DNA of 64,000 nt from Escherichia coli (GTDB lineage Bacteria > Pseudomonadota > Gammaproteobacteria > Enterobacterales > Enterobacteriaceae). The notes under the pieces were generated by a model that saw only the letters and a program-made list of their open reading frames with translations, had not been told where the DNA came from and searched no databases. The stretch's first letter is position 1; the number at the start of each line of letters is the position of its first letter. The translations under genes and the position numbers were made by a program. Shown here in pieces: positions 16,305 through 54,710 of the stretch. The stretch lies in NCBI RefSeq assembly GCF_003018115.1, contig NZ_CP027457.1; one strand, given 5' to 3'.

Positions 16305-16511
16305 AAGACTTTCTCCAGTGATGTTGAATCACATTTAAGCTACTAAAAATATTTTACAAAATTTCAAATTTAATTGAAAGCTATGGCGATATTGAAAAAT
16401 TCATCAACAACTATGCTTAGTGTAGGCGCAACCTTCAACTGAACGGTTAAACATGCCACAATACCCGTATTGAATGCTTAATTTTTCGCTAAATCAGGAT
16501 ATTAACTACCC

Positions 16512-19151
16512 ATGCTGGGTAAATATAAAGCCGTTCTCGCGCTGTTATTACTGATTATTCTTGTGCCGTTGACGCTGCTGATGACGCTCGGGCTGTGGGT
16601 TCCCACGCTGGCGGGCATCTGGCTACCGCTCGGGACACGTATTGCATTAGATGAAAGCCCACGCATTACGCGTAAAGGTTTAATCATTCCCGATCTCCGT
16701 TATCTGGTGGGAGATTGTCAGCTTGCGCATATCACCAACGCCAGCCTTTCACATCCCAGCCGCTGGTTATTGAACGTCGGCACGGTAGAACTTGATTCTG
16801 CTTGTCTGGCGAAATTGCCGCAGACGGAGCAATCGCCAGCTGCTCCAAAAACCCTCGCGCAGTGGCAGTCCATGCTGCCTAACACCTGGATCAATATCGA
16901 TAAACTGATTTTTTCTCCCTGGCAGGAATGGCAGGGAAAACTCTCTCTCGCATTAACCTCCGATATCCAGCAACTGCGTTATCAGGGCGAAAAAGTTAAA
17001 TTTCAAGGCCAGCTGAAAGGGCAACAACTTACAGTCAGCGAACTGGATGTCGTCGCGTTTGAAAATCAGCCGCCGGTTAAACTGGTGGGGGAATTTACTA
17101 TGCCGCTAGTGCCGGATGGACTTCCTGTAAGTGGGCATGCTACTGCGACGTTAAACTTGCCGCAGGAACCGTCACTGGTGGATGCAGAGCTGGACTGGCA
17201 GGAAAATAGCGGGCAATTGATCGTGCTGGCACGGGATAACGGCGATCCGTTGCTCGATTTGCCGTGGCAAATTACTCGTCAACAATTGACCGTAAGCGAT
17301 GGTCGCTGGAGCTGGCCGTATGCAGGTTTTCCTTTGAGTGGCCGACTGGGTGTCAAAGTCGACAACTGGCAGGCAGGGCTTGAGAACGCTCTGGTCAGCG
17401 GACGACTGAGTGTGCTGACCCAGGGGCAAGCGGGTAAGGGCAACGCGGTGCTTAATTTTGGCCCAGGAAAATTAAGCATGGATAACAGCCAGCTGCCTCT
17501 GCAGCTGACCGGTGAAGCGAAACAGGCGAACCTCATTTTATATGCCCGTTTACCTGCGCAGCTAAGTGGAAGTCTGTCTGACCCAACGCTGACCTTTGAG
17601 CCAGGCGCGTTACTTCGTTCAAAGGGAAGAGTCATCGATTCGCTGGACATCGATGAAATCCGCTGGCCTTTAGCGGGTGTAAAAGTCACCCAACGTGGTG
17701 TTGACGGACGTTTGCAGGCCATTTTGCAGGCGCATGAAAATGAACTGGGCGATTTCGTGCTGCATATGGATGGGCTGGCGAATGATTTTCTCCCTGACGC
17801 TGGCCGCTGGCAGTGGCGCTACTGGGGAAAAGGGAGTTTTACACCGATGAATGCCACCTGGGATGTCGCAGGAAAAGGTGAGTGGCATGACAGCACGATT
17901 ACGCTGACCGATCTCTCCACCGGTTTCGACCAGTTACAATACGGTACGATGACGGTAGAAAAGCCGCGATTAATTCTCGACAAGCCCGTCGTCTGGGTAC
18001 GTGACGCACAGCATCCCTCCTTCAGCGGCGCGCTGTCACTGGACGCCGGGCAAACGCTGTTCACTGGCGGCAGTGTGTTACCGCCATCAACCTTAAAATT
18101 TAGCGTCGATGGGCGCGATCCGACGTATTTCCTCTTTAAAGGCGATTTACATGCTGGTGAGATTGGCCCGGTTCGGGTAAATGGTCGCTGGGACGGTATT
18201 CGTCTGCGCGGTAATGCCTGGTGGCCTAAACAATCACTGACTGTATTCCAGCCGCTGGTGCCACCCGACTGGAAGATGAACTTACGCGATGGTGAACTGT
18301 ATGCTCAGGTTGCATTTTCTGCTGCGCCTGAACAAGGATTCCGCGCGGGAGGGCACGGCGTGTTGAAAGGCGGTAGTGCCTGGATGCCAGATAATCAGGT
18401 GAACGGTGTCGATTTTGTCCTGCCTTTCCGTTTTGCCGATGGAGCCTGGCATCTGGGGACTCGCGGCCCCGTTACGTTGCGAATTGCCGAAGTGATTAAT
18501 CTGGTGACAGCGAAAAATATTACGGCTGATTTGCAAGGGCGTTATCCGTGGACTGAAGAAGAACCCTTGCTGTTGACTGATGTTAGCGTCGATGTGTTAG
18601 GCGGTAACGTGCTGATGAAACAATTACGTATGCCGCAACATGACCCGGCGCTGTTGCGGCTGAATAATCTCTCATCCAGCGAACTGGTTAGCGCCGTCAA
18701 TCCGAAACAATTCGCCATGTCCGGGGCATTTAGTGGTGCATTGCCGTTATGGCTAAACAACGAAAAATGGATAGTGAAAGATGGTTGGCTGGCAAATAGC
18801 GGGCCAATGACCTTGCGGCTGGATAAAGACACCGCAGATGCGGTGGTGAAAGACAATATGACTGCGGGTTCAGCAATTAACTGGTTGCGCTATATGGAAA
18901 TTAGCCGTTCATCGACAAATATTAATTTAGATAATCTCGGTTTATTAACCATGCAGGCCAACATTACAGGTACCAGTCGCGTTGATGGTAAAAGCGGTAC
19001 GGTAAACCTTAATTACCATCATGAAGAGAATATTTTTACGCTGTGGCGCAGTTTACGCTTTGGCGATAATCTCCAGGCATGGTTGGAGCAGAACGCACGT
19101 CTGCCGGGAAATGACTGTCCGCAAGGAAAAGAGTGTGAGGAAAAACAATGA
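16512..19151 (+). CDS. ydbH: AsmA-like inner-membrane-anchored periplasmic protein YdbH
   Basis: 879-aa ORF with N-terminal TM anchor MLGKYKAVLALLLLIILVPLTLLMTL and long beta-rich body. Confidence 0.9.
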   Translation: MLGKYKAVLALLLLIILVPLTLLMTLGLWVPTLAGIWLPLGTRIALDESPRITRKGLIIPDLRYLVGDCQLAHITNASLSHPSRWLLNVGTVELDSACLAKLPQTEQSPAAPKTLAQWQSMLPNTWINIDKLIFSPWQEWQGKLSLALTSDIQQLRYQGEKVKFQGQLKGQQLTVSELDVVAFENQPPVKLVGEFTMPLVPDGLPVSGHATATLNLPQEPSLVDAELDWQENSGQLIVLARDNGDPLLDLPWQITRQQLTVSDGRWSWPYAGFPLSGRLGVKVDNWQAGLENALVSGRLSVLTQGQAGKGNAVLNFGPGKLSMDNSQLPLQLTGEAKQANLILYARLPAQLSGSLSDPTLTFEPGALLRSKGRVIDSLDIDEIRWPLAGVKVTQRGVDGRLQAILQAHENELGDFVLHMDGLANDFLPDAGRWQWRYWGKGSFTPMNATWDVAGKGEWHDSTITLTDLSTGFDQLQYGTMTVEKPRLILDKPVVWVRDAQHPSFSGALSLDAGQTLFTGGSVLPPSTLKFSVDGRDPTYFLFKGDLHAGEIGPVRVNGRWDGIRLRGNAWWPKQSLTVFQPLVPPDWKMNLRDGELYAQVAFSAAPEQGFRAGGHGVLKGGSAWMPDNQVNGVDFVLPFRFADGAWHLGTRGPVTLRIAEVINLVTAKNITADLQGRYPWTEEEPLLLTDVSVDVLGGNVLMKQLRMPQHDPALLRLNNLSSSELVSAVNPKQFAMSGAFSGALPLWLNNEKWIVKDGWLANSGPMTLRLDKDTADAVVKDNMTAGSAINWLRYMEISRSSTNINLDNLGLLTMQANITGTSRVDGKSGTVNLNYHHEENIFTLWRSLRFGDNLQAWLEQNARLPGNDCPQGKECEEKQ

Positions 19152-19333
19152 AAATTTTACTGGCTGCGTTGACGTCATCTTTTATGCTGGTTGGCTGTAC
19201 GCCTCGCATTGAAGTCGCTGCACCTAAGGAACCGATCACTATCAATATGAACGTTAAAATTGAGCATGAGATCATCATCAAGGCAGACAAAGATGTCGAA
19301 GAGCTGCTTGAAACTCGTAGCGATCTTTTCTGA
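19148..19333 (+). CDS. ynbE: Lipoprotein YnbE
   Basis: 61-aa ORF MKILLAALTSSFMLVGC (lipobox); start overlaps the ydbH stop (ATGA). Confidence 0.85.
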   Translation: MKILLAALTSSFMLVGCTPRIEVAAPKEPITINMNVKIEHEIIIKADKDVEELLETRSDLF

Positions 19334-19340
19334 GGCGATG

Positions 19341-19667
19341 ATGAAGAAAACATTACTTCTTTGTGCGTTTCTTGTTGGGCTGGTAAGCAGCAATGTAATG
19401 GCATTGACTCTGGATGAAGCCAGAACTCAGGGGCGGGTCGGGGAAACATTTTATGGTTATCTGGTTGCGCTGAAAACGGATGCTGAAACAGAGAAATTAG
19501 TAACCGACATTAATGCCGAACGTAAAGCGAGTTACCAACAACTGGCAAAGCAAAATAATGTGTCGGTAGATGATATCGCGAAACTCGCCGGGCAAAAGCT
19601 CGTAGCTCGGGCTAAACCGGGGGAATATGTACAAGGGATAAACGGTAAATGGGTGCGAAAATTTTAA
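19341..19667 (+). CDS. ydbL: Periplasmic DUF1318 protein YdbL
   Basis: 108-aa form MKKTLLLCAFLVGLVSSNVMA (signal peptide), SD GAGG upstream; track ORF has an unlikely upstream extension overlapping ynbE. Confidence 0.8.
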   Translation: MKKTLLLCAFLVGLVSSNVMALTLDEARTQGRVGETFYGYLVALKTDAETEKLVTDINAERKASYQQLAKQNNVSVDDIAKLAGQKLVARAKPGEYVQGINGKWVRKF

Positions 19668-19801
19668 TAGCAAAACCGCACTATCGGGATAACGCTACAG
19701 GAGAAAGCGATTGATCTATTTTCCTGAAACAAGGTGAATATTCAAAAACTCCTGTCAAATTGCCTTTTGCCCTGAAAAATGCATAGTCAAATATCTGTTT
19801 T

Positions 19802-19840
19802 AACTAATTGGCGTTGCAGTACATGCAACGCCAATTAGTT
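19802..19840. terminator. Long perfect palindrome between convergent ydbL and feaR (bidirectional terminator candidate)
   Basis: AACTAATTGGCGTTGC-AGTACAT-GCAACGCCAATTAGTT, 16-nt perfect arms. Confidence 0.6.
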
Positions 19841-20744
19841 AGCGGAATTTACGGCGATACTCGCCAGGCGTCATCCCAAAGCGTTGCTTAAATACCGTTG
19901 AAAAATGACTCTGGTCGGAAAATCCCCAATGAAAGCCAATGCCTGCCAGTTTTTCATCATCTGCGGCATGGCGAATCGCATCTGCACAAAAATCGAGACG
20001 ACGGTTACGAATATATTGCGCGACTACCAAACCTTTATCGGCAAACATTCGGTACAAACTACGTACTGACATACCTGTCTCTCCGGCTATCCACTCCGGG
20101 CGTAATATCTCTTCGCGAATATTATCGTCTATCAACGTAACCACTTTTTGAAACTGACGTTCACGGCGAGGTTGGACAGATTCCCGCTGATGAAGTACTG
20201 GGCGAAGCAGACACACCATCGCCTGTAGCGCAGCTTCACTTTCTGTTTCAGAAAGTGCCGGATTATTCATGCTCTCCTGTAACAGGCGATGACTGAGTTG
20301 CACCATGGGTAAGTCAGCGTCCAGTCTTTCTGCGCAGACAGGTTTTTGATGGGGAAAATATTGTTCCAGCAGAGTGCGTGGCAAAAGTAATGAAATCTGT
20401 TTAGAAGACTCCTGCCAGTAAAGCGAACAGGGGCGTGAGGCATCGAGTAACGTAATATCGCCTGCGCTAATCTGCACCTGACGCTCATCCTGCTCCATTA
20501 TCGCCTGACCACTAAGCTGAAAAACGGTGTAAAACCAGGCATCGTCACTGCCTTTTACCTCCTGCCAGGTGCGGTATAAATTCACTCCGTTGGTTGTCAC
20601 GGTGCTCAGCTTTAGTCCTTTGGCAAAATGCGTGTCCAGTACACCCGTGTAACGCTCAGTCAGCAGGCGTCCGGTAAAATTTCCGCATACCTGATTGATT
20701 TGGGAAAGCCATTGCTGAAACTCATTATCCACTGCGGGGTTCAT
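19839..20744 (-). CDS. feaR: AraC-family activator FeaR of the tynA/feaB genes
   Basis: 301-aa ORF with C-terminal AraC-type HTH (...GFHWGFSDQSHFSTVFKQRFGMTPGEYRRKF). Confidence 0.9.
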   Translation of the reverse strand: MNPAVDNEFQQWLSQINQVCGNFTGRLLTERYTGVLDTHFAKGLKLSTVTTNGVNLYRTWQEVKGSDDAWFYTVFQLSGQAIMEQDERQVQISAGDITLLDASRPCSLYWQESSKQISLLLPRTLLEQYFPHQKPVCAERLDADLPMVQLSHRLLQESMNNPALSETESEAALQAMVCLLRPVLHQRESVQPRRERQFQKVVTLIDDNIREEILRPEWIAGETGMSVRSLYRMFADKGLVVAQYIRNRRLDFCADAIRHAADDEKLAGIGFHWGFSDQSHFSTVFKQRFGMTPGEYRRKFR

Positions 20745-38764: not shown

Positions 38765-39625
38765 ATGAGCAGCAATACATTTACTCTCGGTACTAAATCC
38801 GTTAACCGTCTTGGTTATGGCGCGATGCAACTGGCAGGTCCTGGGGTTTTTGGTCCCCCAAGAGATCGCCACGTCGCTATAACCGTGCTGCGTGAGGCGC
38901 TGGCATTGGGCGTCAATCACATTGATACCAGCGATTTTTATGGTCCGCACGTCACCAATCAGATTATCCGCGAAGCGCTTTATCCTTACTCTGACGACCT
39001 GACAATTGTCACTAAAATTGGTGCGCGGCGTGGAGAGGACGCTTCCTGGTTGCCCGCCTTTTCTTCGGCAGAGCTGCAAAAAGCGGTACACGATAATCTA
39101 CGTAATCTCGGCCTGGACGTACTGGATGTGGTTAACCTGCGCGTGATGATGGGGGATGGTCATGGCCCAGCGGAAGGATCGATTGAAGCCAGCCTGACCG
39201 TGCTGGCAGAGATGCAACAACAAGGCCTGGTAAAACATATTGGCCTGAGCAACGTCACACCGACGCAGGTTGCAGAGGCGCGTAAGATTACCGAAATTGT
39301 CTGTGTGCAAAACGAATACAACATTGCTCATCGTGCTGATGACGCAATGATTGATGCTTTGACCCGCGAAGGTATTGCCTATGTGCCGTTCTTCCCGCTC
39401 GGGGGCTTTACGCCGCTGCAATCCGCCACGCTTTCTGATGTTGCAGCGAGCCTGGGTGCAACACCCATGCAGGTGGCGCTGGCGTGGCTGTTACAACGTT
39501 CACCGAATATTTTGCTGATCCCAGGGACGTCTTCTGTTGCGCATTTACGGGAGAATATGGCTGCTGAAAAATTGCATCTTTCTGAGGATGTGTTGTCTAC
39601 GTTGGATAGTATTTCGCGAGAATAA
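38765..39625 (+). CDS. ydbC: Aldo-keto reductase YdbC
   Basis: 286-aa ORF MSSNTFTLGTKSVNRLGYGAMQLAGPGVFG...; AKR family. Confidence 0.9.
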   Translation: MSSNTFTLGTKSVNRLGYGAMQLAGPGVFGPPRDRHVAITVLREALALGVNHIDTSDFYGPHVTNQIIREALYPYSDDLTIVTKIGARRGEDASWLPAFSSAELQKAVHDNLRNLGLDVLDVVNLRVMMGDGHGPAEGSIEASLTVLAEMQQQGLVKHIGLSNVTPTQVAEARKITEIVCVQNEYNIAHRADDAMIDALTREGIAYVPFFPLGGFTPLQSATLSDVAASLGATPMQVALAWLLQRSPNILLIPGTSSVAHLRENMAAEKLHLSEDVLSTLDSISRE

Positions 39626-39639
39626 CGAATATACAAAAG

Positions 39640-39672
39640 GGAAAGATGCATTTCCCTTTTGTTTCTTTTTTA
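39640..39672 (+). terminator. Intrinsic terminator after ydbC
   Basis: AAAGGGAAA-GATGCA-TTTCCCTTT hairpin followed by a T-rich run. Confidence 0.55.
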
Positions 39673-39688
39673 ATGGCATGGAGTGCAT

Positions 39689-39790
39689 ATGTTTAAGCCC
39701 AGGATTTGCAGCTGGATAGGTTTACTTCTCCTGTTTATGCTGAGTACTTCCAGTACAGGCGGAACTTCGATGTGTTGCAAATGCAGTTGA
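39689..39790 (+). pseudogene. Truncated signal-peptide-bearing ORF fragment (33 codons), probable remnant of a secreted protein gene (ydbD-like?)
   Basis: GGAG SD then ATG; MFKPRICSWIGLLLLFMLSTSSTGGTSMCCKCS stop; protein-like coding continues downstream in two other frames. Confidence 0.4.
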
Positions 39791-39901
39791 TATTGAACCA
39801 TTTTTTTCTGCGGCTACCGCTGAAGATAAACAACAAGTTGAACAAGCTATCAACAGTAGCGTGAATCTTGTCCCTTCGGTTTATCTGCATCGGACTGGAA
39901 A

Positions 39902-41362
39902 GTGCATCGTGGCGATTTAGTGGTAGAAGGTAATATAGAGAGTAATCAAAAATTGATTGTTCTTGGCAATTTGACAGTCAAAGGTAATATTTCCACTTTC
40001 TCTCTTTCTAATCCATGGGTTATTCTCGGTAACGTGACGGCAACGAATATAGTTACGGATTCACCACTGTTAATTACCGGTTCGATAAATGCAAGTGGAC
40101 TGGTATTTATCGACTCATATTACGATAATCCGTCTACGATTAAGGGGAGTATTAATGCGCGTGGGATATTTATCAATGACATAATTGCACCTGTTGTTGC
40201 GTCTTCGACAAATAGTGAATTCATGGTCCGTGCGAGTGACAAAAATGACACTGAAAATGTCAAAAAAGCGCTGATGATAATAAATCCTGATGCATATTAT
40301 TGGGGTCTAATTAATGATGAAGATGCTCTGAAAGAAATTTTTAAGCGAAGCAATATTCGCATGGCAGGGAATGTCTGTAATCAGATGAAAAAAGAAGCGC
40401 TGTTTCGCCCTAAGCCTTCTCCTGAGTTAGTGCAGGAATTGCAAATGCTGGATGAAGGCAACGTTGCTGCATTTGAAGGACGAGATATTGCGACATTTGA
40501 TCTTGCCATAATGCGAACTCTCCCAAGGCTTAAAGGAATTTCAGCTAACCTACGCAAACAACTTATTGTTACATTACGTATTCGTACCTGGTGGGGTATC
40601 GTCATTTGTTTTTCACTGGTGATTTCAGGTCCACGCTGGATGACGTTGACGTTTTTTGCGCTGATAAGTTTTCTGGCATTGAAAGAATATTGTACGCTTA
40701 TATCCGTACATTTTCCGCGTTGGTTATATTTGGTTATTCCTCTTAACTATTTGCTTATCGGTTTTAATTGCTTTGAGCTGTTTCTGTTATTTATACCTTT
40801 GACTGGGTTTCTGATATTAGCCACCTGGCGAGTTTTTGTGGGTGATCCCTCCGGTTTTCTGCATATCGTGAGCGCCATTTTTTGGGGCTGGATAATGACC
40901 GTTTTCGCCTTGAGTCATACCGCCTGGCTATTAATGTTGCCAACCATAAATATCCAGGGCGGGGCGTTACTGGTGTTATTTCTTTTGGCGTTAACCGGGT
41001 CAAACAATATTGCACAGTATTTATGGGGGAAATCCTGCGGCAGAAGAAAAGTGGTCCCCAAAGTCAGCCCGGGAAAAACGCTGGAAGGTCTGGTGGGGGG
41101 CGTCATCACCACCATGATTGCGTCACTGATTATTGGGCCGTTGCTGACACCGCTAAATACATTACAGGCATTATTAGCGGGTTTGTTAATTGGTATTAGT
41201 GGTTTTTGCGGCGATGTAGTGATGTCAGCCATCAAACGAGATATTGGTGTTAAAGATAGTGGAAAACTATTACCAGGACATGGCGGACTCCTTGACAGGA
41301 TTGACTCATTAATTTTCACCGCTACGGTATTTTTTTATTTTATTCGCTACTGCTGTTACTGA
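39902..41362 (+). CDS. ynbB: 486-aa protein: N-terminal beta-helical repeat domain fused to a CdsA-family (phosphatidate cytidylyltransferase-like) membrane domain; C-terminal part corresponds to YnbB
   Basis: C-terminal ~285 aa multi-TM with CdsA signature KVSPGKTLEGLVGG...LLPGHGGLLDRIDSL; N-terminal ~100 aa of G/N-punctuated beta-strand repeats (LIVLGNLTVKGNIS, ILGNVTATNIV, ITGSINASGLVFI, KGSINARGIFIN). Confidence 0.7.
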   Translation: MHRGDLVVEGNIESNQKLIVLGNLTVKGNISTFSLSNPWVILGNVTATNIVTDSPLLITGSINASGLVFIDSYYDNPSTIKGSINARGIFINDIIAPVVASSTNSEFMVRASDKNDTENVKKALMIINPDAYYWGLINDEDALKEIFKRSNIRMAGNVCNQMKKEALFRPKPSPELVQELQMLDEGNVAAFEGRDIATFDLAIMRTLPRLKGISANLRKQLIVTLRIRTWWGIVICFSLVISGPRWMTLTFFALISFLALKEYCTLISVHFPRWLYLVIPLNYLLIGFNCFELFLLFIPLTGFLILATWRVFVGDPSGFLHIVSAIFWGWIMTVFALSHTAWLLMLPTINIQGGALLVLFLLALTGSNNIAQYLWGKSCGRRKVVPKVSPGKTLEGLVGGVITTMIASLIIGPLLTPLNTLQALLAGLLIGISGFCGDVVMSAIKRDIGVKDSGKLLPGHGGLLDRIDSLIFTATVFFYFIRYCCY

Positions 41363-41377
41363 AGGAAAATAGAGAAA

Positions 41378-44441
<3,064 letters not shown>

Positions 44442-53673: not shown

Positions 53674-53917
53674 AGAATATTTAAAGAAAACGCCTGTACT
53701 AAAACCGACCCGTGGTACAGGCGAAGAATACGGGTCTACATCGGAAGCGCCTATTATATTTATTTGTATGACAAATAAAACCATAATCCTTGCCCATACG
53801 TCTATCTGGCTTATTTTTAATCAATTCACCCGATCTTTGATCTCATCAACGGTATCAAAATAAACCAGCGTATAACGTTCAAATCGAACATAAGATTCGA
53901 TAAACCATGGAGGTTAT

Positions 53918-54162: not shown

Positions 54163-54370
<208 letters not shown>

Positions 54371-54710
54371 TCGTTGGCCTCGGTTGATAGAAATATCGGT
54401 CGGGGCCTTCGTCTTTCTGATTCCCGGTTAGCCTGAAAACAGAAAGTCTCAGGCACCCGCAGGCATCCTATGAGGTTTCCTTAGGGACGAAAATAATCAC
54501 TTCACGAAATTGCGTGCTGTTTTCCAGAATTTTTCGTCATTCGGGTTAGCCAGTTTAGCCATTCGTTACTCTCTTCATTCCAATAGCATTAATTTTCTCT
54601 GCAATAATTGTTGTAAAAATGTGACGCAAAGAGGTTTTTGGTCATAAGTAATTACCGTCAAGTGCCGATGACTTTCTATCAGGAGTAAACCTGGACGAGA
54701 GACAACGGTA

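Follow-up and report, generated by a model that had tools for sequence, protein, structure and literature searches.

[quoted passage not shown]

In a 64,000-nucleotide stretch of Escherichia coli DNA (the window), the gene for a large AsmA-like protein is followed almost without interruption by genes for two small proteins. Does this compact arrangement reflect functional dependence, and are both small proteins obligate partners of the large one, as an earlier note made from the sequence alone had proposed? The three genes run in tandem on the + strand within positions 16512-19667, and the features on which the argument depends are the following:

16305..16511, no strand: divergent ldhA-ydbH intergenic region of 207 bp, the presumed operon promoter region, identical to K-12
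16493..16497, +: weak Shine-Dalgarno-like CAGGA, about 14 nt before the ydbH ATG (anti-SD duplex only -4.1 kcal/mol)
16512..19151, +: ydbH, 879-aa inner-membrane-anchored AsmA-like (repeating beta-groove) protein (ORF, PF11739, NF007971)
19137..19141, +: ynbE Shine-Dalgarno GAGGA in the 3' end of ydbH, 6 nt before the ynbE ATG (anti-SD duplex -6.2 kcal/mol)
19148..19151, +: ATGA overlap of the ynbE start (ATG 19148-19150) and the ydbH stop (TGA 19149-19151), 4 nt, context caATGAaa
19148..19333, +: ynbE, 61-aa outer-membrane lipoprotein, mature form 45 aa (PF13617, lipobox)
19332..19335, +: ydbL Shine-Dalgarno GAGG, overlapping the ynbE stop codon (anti-SD duplex -5.6 kcal/mol)
19341..19667, +: ydbL, 108-aa periplasmic DUF1318 protein, chaperone-like modulator of YnbE (PF07027, signal peptide, 28oj_A)

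The identity of the genes is clear. Each of the three proteins scores far beyond the cut-off of its curated family: YdbH matches PF11739 with 966.6 bits (cut-off 26.3; E 2.8e-290) over residues 14-862 and profile positions 1-892 of 893, as well as the NCBIfam equivalog NF007971 (1400.5 bits, cut-off 824), YnbE matches PF13617 with 59.3 bits (cut-off 25.8; E 3e-16), and YdbL matches PF07027 with 108.3 bits (cut-off 27; E 2.8e-31). The block is collinear with K-12 b1381-b1383 at 98.8% nucleotide identity (42 mismatches in 3534 nt, 0 indels), and it is the same locus as the K-12 ydbH-ynbE-ydbL operon (Kumar, Davis and Ruiz 2024, PMC11126948). Only strain-level polymorphisms separate the two: five amino-acid differences in YdbH (A120S, A196T, D340N, I493V, K803N) and one in YdbL (A55T), with ynbE 100% identical to b1382 in nucleotide sequence. 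As in K-12, ldhA and feaR flank the operon, with the same junctions, and 5417 of the 5426 complete E. coli genomes carry the block. The family and equivalog matches, together with collinearity with K-12, indicate that the arrangement is not due to chance. Thus, the names given to the genes in the earlier note are correct, the ORF coordinates bear out its sizes of 879, 61 and 108 aa, and the locus is an ordinary, previously characterised E. coli operon, accurately described but not new.

Signals for transcription proved less informative. A simple sigma-70 scan returned no site in the 207-bp ldhA-ydbH region, and scans for sigma-70 sites and terminators in and around the operon gave nothing above chance. 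Inside the block, the scan returned no terminator-like site on the + strand, and the 4-nt overlap and 7-nt spacer leave no space for internal promoters. Initiation at ydbH itself is probably weak.

At the first junction, the ydbH stop overlaps the ynbE start as ATGA, an arrangement identical in K-12. The second junction reads cTGAGGcgATGATG, with the ynbE stop at 19331-19333 and a spacer of 7 nt when ydbL starts at 19341, 8 nt beyond the end of ynbE and behind its own Shine-Dalgarno; this spacer differs from that of K-12 by one base (GAGGCG here, GAGGTG in K-12). Both junctions were described in this way in the earlier note. Two in-frame ATGs could serve ydbL, at 19338 (109 aa; the choice of NCBI PGAP) and at 19341 (108 aa; the curated K-12 start), within a longer ORF at 19260-19667 that encloses the gene. 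We favour 19341 because its Shine-Dalgarno spacing is 5 nt, as against 2 nt for 19338.

Both junctions have the layout of termination-reinitiation sites, an overlap or a short spacer accompanied by a Shine-Dalgarno sequence. For ydbH-ynbE, coupling has been measured directly with reporters: ynbE is no longer translated once ydbH carries a premature stop, there is a strict need for the Shine-Dalgarno (PMC6728339), and the coupling depends on distance (PMC10666635). The translational coupling claimed for this pair is therefore borne out by published data, and coupling of ydbL to ynbE across the 7-nt spacer is plausible from the sequence. It was also proposed in PMC6728339 that a stable RNA structure masks the ynbE initiation region. 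The predicted fold of positions -99 to +30 at this junction (-27.4 kcal/mol) is not more stable than shuffled sequences (z +1.2) and so does not reproduce a local structural block of de novo initiation; we have dropped this element as unsupported by that fold.

A different explanation for the compact layout would be incidental packing through genome streamlining, with no functional coupling behind it. To weigh this, we turn to related loci. The sample comprised 80 loci, one per species, from gamma-, beta- and alphaproteobacteria and Desulfobulbia, picked solely through YdbL. Since no stretch of the full 77-sequence YdbL alignment was conserved enough for a genome scan, the scan used the motif AK[SAQ]QGLVGE from a 20-sequence subset, and the sample is biased toward that motif. 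A YnbE-like ORF lies next to ydbL in all 80 of these loci and a YdbH-like ORF is present in 79, the sole exception being cut by a contig end; all ten of the distant large ORFs that we checked belong to PF11739. Order and strand are the same in 78 loci. Co-conservation, suggested in the earlier note as a check, thus holds in nearly all YdbL-selected loci. Protein homologue searches with YdbH and YnbE returned, among the matches listed, only close Enterobacteriaceae.

The spacing of the genes is more variable than their order. Between ynbE and ydbL, the spacer has a median of 10 nt and is at most 30 nt in 69 of 78 loci, and ydbH and ynbE overlap in 30 of 78, roughly 40% (by 4 nt in 28 and by 1 nt in 2). 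The remaining 48 show no overlap, with spacers up to about 230 nt, which would suit incidental packing, as would the observation that ATGA overlaps are common in bacteria (PMC6728339). Against it, the genes stay neighbours in a conserved order from one proteobacterial class to another and in Desulfobulbia, the translation of ynbE relies on that of ydbH in reporter assays (PMC6728339), and the relative levels of the proteins affect phenotype (PMC11126948; 10.64898/2026.03.16.712125). As an account of adjacency, incidental packing is refuted, and we give it almost no credence.

What, then, do the proteins do together? Strong Kyte-Doolittle hydrophobicity in YdbH is confined to the N-terminal ~40 residues, and 19-residue windows exceed 1.6 only at starts 1-22 of 879, consistent with a single N-terminal transmembrane anchor. 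An AF2 model of the C-terminal third (residues 580-879) contains 17 successive beta-strands with pLDDT of about 90; in this modelled part, YdbH is predicted to form the extended repeated-strand sheet that characterises RBG proteins. The earlier note was also right to call YdbH AsmA-like and implicated in phospholipid transport, as both have been published (PMC8593681, PMC11126948). A comparison of sequence profiles with hhalign gave no significant link of YdbH to TamB or YhdP (18.7% and 0.3% probability, respectively).

YnbE carries the lipobox L14-V-G-C17 (LVGC) with lipidated Cys17, and the Thr at +2 means that there is no Asp retention signal. Its Cys is invariant in 81 homologues, and the core P29-K48 is nearly invariant in the same set. 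Hydrophobic and polar residues alternate strictly over residues 30-46, with conserved hydrophobic positions at 30, 32, 34, 36, 38, 42, 44 and 46. When YdbH(580-879) was fused through a linker to YnbE(17-61) and modelled with AF2, residues 339-347 of the fusion, corresponding to YnbE 30-38, were assigned as a strand by DSSP with moderate pLDDT (62-71), and YnbE 48-56 formed a helix, matching the published prediction. This model was read from strand assignments rather than coordinates, so that the partner strand of YnbE and its register are not visible. Modelled alone with AlphaFold, YnbE has no strand and forms a helix at 34-56. For the YdbH-YnbE part, the structure prediction proposed as a check thus agrees with the idea of a complex: I30-I38 is predicted to become a beta-strand only together with the YdbH C-terminus.

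[quoted passage not shown] The best local hhalign match between the two proteins is this very pair, but with E 0.25 over 7 columns. In a PSSM scan of 76 YdbH-like proteins the last-strand site was the top match in only 9-11, other strands matched similarly, and scores did not exceed those of shuffles. The resemblance appears to be a generic strand pattern, and we rejected the idea.

In the mechanism that we propose, one N-terminal helix would anchor YdbH in the inner membrane, from which a long curved beta-sheet groove would reach into the periplasm, too short alone to arrive at the outer membrane. Mature YnbE (45 residues), anchored in the outer membrane through lipidated Cys17 and disordered on its own, would add its I30-I38 strand to the C-terminal end of the YdbH sheet, so that the hydrophobic groove is prolonged and the bridge completed; YnbE may also stack on itself. 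Soluble periplasmic YdbL would bind the C-terminal helix of YnbE and limit runaway multimerisation, being helpful rather than required and poisonous in excess. The gene layout would then serve stoichiometry, with the translation of ynbE left almost entirely to ribosomes that have reached the ydbH stop immediately before, through Shine-Dalgarno-dependent reinitiation at the ATGA, and ydbL following 7 nt later.

Much of this has experimental backing. From synthetic lethality, photo-crosslinking and proline mutants, inner-membrane-anchored YdbH and the lipoprotein YnbE were concluded to form an intermembrane bridge through beta-strand augmentation, and both genes become essential once tamB and yhdP are deleted (PMC11126948); PA5307/PA5306 of P. 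aeruginosa show the same dependence on a lipoprotein partner (PMC12447247). The YdbH-YnbE interaction, the tamB/yhdP-dependent essentiality, the ydbH/ynbE coupling and the binding of YdbL to YnbE are thus established in published experiments; the travel of lipids along the groove, the number of YnbE copies per bridge and the coupling of ydbL to ynbE are what we infer.

The bridge could be real and yet have a cargo or role other than bulk phospholipid, as a tether or as a channel through which lipoproteins or other molecules of the envelope pass, in which case the lipid phenotypes would be indirect. According to PMC11126948, lipid transfer lacks a biochemical demonstration, a direct transport assay is absent from the literature, and a 1:1 YdbH-YnbE model leaves about 70 Angstrom of the periplasm unspanned. 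Other AsmA-like proteins have been linked to other cargo (PMC12802150): TamB to outer-membrane protein assembly and GspN to lipoprotein surface transport. Several observations weigh against such a role: in keeping outer-membrane lipids in balance, YdbH is redundant with TamB and YhdP (PMC8593681), a continuous hydrophobic face is predicted and the hydrophobic positions of YnbE are conserved, and a fusion of YdbH to the YhdP C-terminus bypasses YnbE (PMC12447247). We regard a different cargo as improbable, and we put at roughly nine in ten the probability that the operon, alongside TamB-TamA and YhdP, belongs to a set of three mutually redundant AsmA-like systems supplying the outer membrane with phospholipid.

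The place of YdbL requires a correction. Its signal peptide is cleaved at VMA21|L22, and PDB 28oj_A ('Probable chaperone-like protein YdbL') aligns to residues 22-108 (E 3e-52); that this chain begins at residue 22 supports cleavage after A21. YdbL binds the YnbE C-terminal helix, is lethal when overproduced, and has a fold reported to resemble the ClpP handle region (bioRxiv 10.64898/2026.03.16.712125). Were YdbL instead an obligate structural subunit of the bridge, one could explain why ydbL adjoins ynbE in 79 of the 80 loci, with a median spacer of 10 nt, why AlphaFold-Multimer puts YdbL on the YdbH C-terminus (PMC11126948 / 10.64898/2026.03.16.712125), why W104 and K107 are functionally important though outside the YnbE interface, and why YdbH levels drop without YdbL (PMC11126948). 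However, depletion of YhdP does not stop the growth of a tamB ydbL strain, and in that background ydbH and ynbE on a plasmid are necessary and sufficient for growth (PMC11126948). Surplus YdbL in a tamB yhdP background is lethal and reduces YnbE multimers (10.64898/2026.03.16.712125), and at one of our loci (L082) ydbL is divergent from ydbH-ynbE. An obligate role for YdbL is thus largely refuted and, in our judgement, very improbable. The earlier proposal of two obligate partners holds for YnbE (PMC11126948; in P. aeruginosa, PMC12447247) and fails for YdbL. Dispensability for YdbH function, which the earlier note had regarded as evidence against its proposal, therefore applies to ydbL and not to ynbE.

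The most constrained part of the system is not the large YdbH groove but the 20-residue core of YnbE. P29, I30, N33, N35, K37, H40 and E41 of YnbE vary little or not at all among gamma-, beta- and alphaproteobacteria and Desulfobulbia. This set includes polar residues that lie on the solvent side in the published model and outside the YdbL-binding helix. The C-terminus of YdbH has diverged to about 20% identity over these loci. We raise, tentatively, the idea that the outer-membrane-proximal section of the bridge is a defined homo-oligomer of YnbE, stacked in register through Asn ladders and a His/Glu pair. YdbL and the coupled translation ratio would set its length, so that self-stacking rather than contact with YdbH would be the dominant selective constraint, a reading that we hold as doubtful.

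Comparison with other envelope systems places the operon in context. TamA-TamB likewise pairs an inner-membrane AsmA-like beta-groove protein with an adjacently encoded outer-membrane partner that it needs; their genes share a 4-nt overlap in K-12 as well, and the system is functionally redundant with that of YdbH (PMC8593681). Unlike YdbH, which depends on a 45-residue lipoprotein encoded downstream, TamB (1259 aa) depends on an Omp85 beta-barrel whose gene lies upstream; a third gene resembling ydbL is absent, and hhalign showed no significant YdbH-TamB sequence similarity. YhdP is also a redundant AsmA-like bridge protein for which phospholipid transport has been proposed (PMC8593681; PMC12447247), but it is 1266 aa long, has no dedicated small partners and is thought to span the periplasm alone via C-terminal hydrophobic helices, and hhalign found no similarity to YdbH. 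For YdbL, the authors of PMC11126948 drew an analogy with CsgC, a periplasmic protein that restrains runaway beta-strand polymerisation of its partner CsgA in curli; this is an analogy only, with no relationship in sequence or fold. The Lpt bridge (LptC-LptA-LptD) is likewise transenvelope, a lipid-carrying beta-jellyroll groove of separate proteins joined edge-to-edge (background in PMC11126948), but it belongs to another fold family, is driven by ATP through LptB2FG and carries LPS.

The earlier interpretation is thus partly supported: it was largely right, though already published, and needs one correction, on YdbL. The importance of the system belongs to work published from 2021 to 2026, and we add only a little to it: independent confirmation that the three genes stay together in distant phyla, a count of how often the stop/start overlap recurs (the roughly 40% of lineages given above), and the finding that conservation is much stronger in the tiny core of YnbE than in its large partner YdbH. 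The way in which phospholipids arrive at the Gram-negative outer membrane was the last large unanswered question about how the envelope is built, and this operon would be one of three redundant routes.

The ydbH-ynbE-ydbL locus is known and ordinary for E. coli. A 3.55-kb stretch containing it occurs in 5417 of 5426 complete E. coli genomes, annotated as ydbH, ynbE and ydbL between ldhA and feaR, and is collinear with b1381-b1383 of K-12 MG1655 (42 mismatches in 3534 nt, zero indels). YnbE is encoded by an identical gene in K-12; there are five residue differences in YdbH and one in YdbL. ORF calling of the window found the three reading frames where the earlier note had placed them:

16512-19151, plus strand: ydbH, 879 aa
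19148-19333, plus strand: ynbE, 61 aa
19260-19667, plus strand: longer ORF within which ydbL lies

At the first junction, caATGAaa, the ynbE ATG (19148) overlaps the ydbH TGA (19149-19151), and GAGGA lies six bases 5' of this ATG. The ynbE/ydbL junction reads cTGAGGcgATGATG, in which GAGG contains the ynbE stop, and ydbL begins with a tandem in-frame ATGATG (19338-19343). PGAP (NCBI) starts ydbL at the first ATG, 19338, giving 109 aa, whereas the curated K-12 record uses the second, 19341, giving 108 aa and a 7-nt spacer. Because the Shine-Dalgarno (SD) spacing is 5 nt to 19341 versus 2 nt to 19338, the sequence favours the curated start, which is also the one the earlier note had chosen. Spacer base 19336, a T in K-12, is C in the window, and this change weakens the extended SD (GAGGTGAT in K-12). 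RNA folding of the ydbH/ynbE junction was no better than that of shuffled sequence, and a scan for promoter-like or plus-strand terminator-like sites found none above chance in or beside the operon.

Beyond the operon, 134 nt past the ydbL stop, lies a perfect 18-bp inverted repeat (19801-19841; loop GTACA) that shares bases with the feaR stop codon (19839-19841, minus strand) and is identical in K-12. The fold of this region beats shuffled sequence by a wide margin (z -5.9). Since no U-run follows the stem on either strand, the repeat does not qualify as a canonical intrinsic terminator for the convergent ydbL and feaR transcripts. Strain 33F4 is the best match at the ydbH region, with 100% identity there. 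At the left end of the window (1-2491), which has abgA-abgR-smrA as in most E. coli, 33F4 instead has HlyD and an MFS efflux gene with a frameshift; thus, the window is a mosaic relative to 33F4. At about 40567 (query 39600-41600), roughly 2.3 kb is missing relative to 33F4, a segment that takes in ynbA together with the 3' part of ydbD and the beginning of ynbB. Of 5426 complete E. coli genomes, only 83 run through this point without a break. Rfam gathering-score matches identified five RNAs, all expected in this part of the E. coli chromosome:

2179-2274, minus strand: McaS
5652-5769, plus strand: FnrS
10580-10700, plus strand: MicC
53684-53747, minus strand: RydC
54307-54458, minus strand: Sok antitoxin RNA

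Each of the three proteins belongs to a named family. YdbH matches PF11739 (YdbH-like, 966 bits) and the NCBIfam YdbH equivalog (1400 bits), and has one hydrophobic segment, at its N-terminus. YnbE is a YnbE-like lipoprotein (PF13617) with lipobox LVGC, Cys17 and Thr at +2, and YdbL (PF07027, DUF1318) has a signal peptide ending VMA|L. PDB entry 28oj_A, titled 'probable chaperone-like protein YdbL', covers YdbL residues 22-108; a sequence search of the PDB returned no YdbH entry. No link from YdbH to TamB or YhdP emerged from sequence profiles, and Foldseek returned zero solved structures at E <= 0.001, so membership of YdbH in the AsmA-like superfamily rests on architecture and the literature. 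In E. coli K-12, tamA and tamB, which encode the other AsmA-like system with a partner in the outer membrane, also overlap by 4 nt (L085, 8113-8116), like ydbH and ynbE, but the gene for the outer-membrane partner lies upstream of tamB and downstream of ydbH.

How widely do the three genes travel together? An exhaustive HMMER search with YdbL gave 1248 clusters at 50% identity, an alignment too diverse for a pattern scan. We instead scanned 100,044 species genomes with a 20-sequence subset sharing AK[SAQ]QGLVGE, which yielded 394 confirmed loci; the best 80 were kept. These span Enterobacterales, Alteromonadales, Vibrionales, Oceanospirillales-type gammaproteobacteria, Neisseriales, Burkholderiales, an alphaproteobacterial MAG and Desulfobulbia. 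When ORFs were called in these best YdbL loci and compared by phmmer and an iterated HMM, 80/80 had a YnbE-like ORF and 79/80 a YdbH-like one; the sequence of the sole exception (L034) ends about 100 nt upstream of ynbE. All ten distant large ORFs checked were PF11739 (E 1e-55 to 1e-128). As the sample was picked via YdbL and one motif, it shows that having YdbL entails having YnbE and YdbH, and not the converse.

The E. coli gene order and strand were kept in 78 of the best 80 loci. In Xenorhabdus innexi (L014), the only locus with ydbH and ynbE split, a 394-aa class-II aminoacyl-tRNA-synthetase-like ORF (5232-6416; PF00587 and PF03129) lies between them on the opposite strand. In a gammaproteobacterial MAG (L082, 4766-7348), ydbH-ynbE, with a short YdbH-like gene (620 aa), is divergent from ydbL about 100 nt away on the opposite strand; the three genes are thus neighbours yet not one transcript. 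Among 78 scorable loci, the ydbH stop and the plausible ynbE start overlap by 4 nt in 28 and by 1 nt in 2, and are separated by up to 30 nt in 20, 31-250 nt in 23 and >250 nt in 1 (4 ambiguous). Between ynbE and ydbL the median spacer is 10 nt, and 69/78 loci have one of <=30 nt. On these counts, three-gene adjacency is close to universal in the sample, and overlap of ydbH and ynbE is frequent but not universal. Shewanella and Photobacterium loci (L020, L022, L029, L039, L049, L052, L055, L056, L071, L079) encode YdbH-like proteins of 1050-1210 aa, versus about 880, mostly with a ydbH-ynbE gap of 75-230 nt and no overlap (10 nt in L079; ambiguous in L056). Some DUF1318 proteins of about 220 aa have two matched stretches (P0250, P0256, P0260), which suggests a tandem domain duplication.

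We joined YdbH 580-879 to mature YnbE by a 25-residue Gly-Ser linker and modelled the fusion with AlphaFold2 and a paired alignment from 26 loci. The YdbH part forms successive strands (pLDDT ~90), followed in YnbE by a strand at 30-38 (pLDDT 62-71) and a helix at 48-56, the same YnbE elements as in the AlphaFold-Multimer model of Kumar et al. (PMC11126948). YnbE modelled alone (45-sequence alignment) has zero strand and a helix at 34-56. Because DSSP calls strand for hydrogen-bonded residues only, the YnbE segment is predicted to be paired with something in the fusion. That YnbE is a copy of the last YdbH strand was also considered, and dropped after testing.

The YnbE core, P29-I-x-I-N-[LM]-N-V-K-I-[ED]-H-E-I-x-[VIL]-K-V-[DE]-K48, varies little or not at all in 81 sequences (75 distinct), and its even positions 30-46 are all hydrophobic except a conserved His at 40. 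Outside Enterobacterales, the C-terminal 300 residues of YdbH in the same loci share only about 20% identity with the E. coli protein. Polar N33, N35, K37, H40 and E41 (residues 30-48, window 19235-19294) show little or no variation across four bacterial classes and lie outside the YdbL-bound helix; the published model puts several of them on the solvent face.

Published studies cover the proposal in the earlier note as well as all its suggested checks (co-conservation, complex prediction and synthetic lethality), so all of these were already in the literature. In vivo crosslinks join YnbE to the YdbH C-terminal domain, YnbE forms multimers, double prolines in its strand abolish function, and YdbH and YnbE are essential in a tamB yhdP background (PMC11126948). 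YdbL restrains YnbE multimerisation, and excess YdbL is dominant-negative (PMC11126948). A 2026 preprint reports a YdbL crystal structure and shows experimentally that YdbL binds YnbE, mapping binding to the YnbE C-terminal helix (10.64898/2026.03.16.712125). P. aeruginosa PA5307/PA5306 show the same need of YdbH for YnbE (PMC12447247). Termination-reinitiation was demonstrated with five native E. coli gene pairs, ydbH/ynbE among them (Huber et al. 2019, PMC6728339; 2023 follow-up, PMC10666635): a premature ydbH stop eliminates ynbE translation, the SD is strictly essential, and efficiency drops as distance grows. The interpretation in the earlier note is partly supported: YnbE as partner and translational coupling stand, and calling YdbL an obligate partner overstated its role.

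The best explanation of the locus is the published one; to it belong phospholipid passage along the YdbH groove, the copy number of YnbE and ynbE/ydbL coupling, all of which are inferred. In this account, YdbH is an inner-membrane-anchored beta-groove whose outer-membrane end is completed by the YnbE lipoprotein through strand augmentation, and periplasmic, chaperone-like YdbL stops YnbE from over-polymerising. Co-transcription and termination-reinitiation tie together the relative amounts of the proteins.
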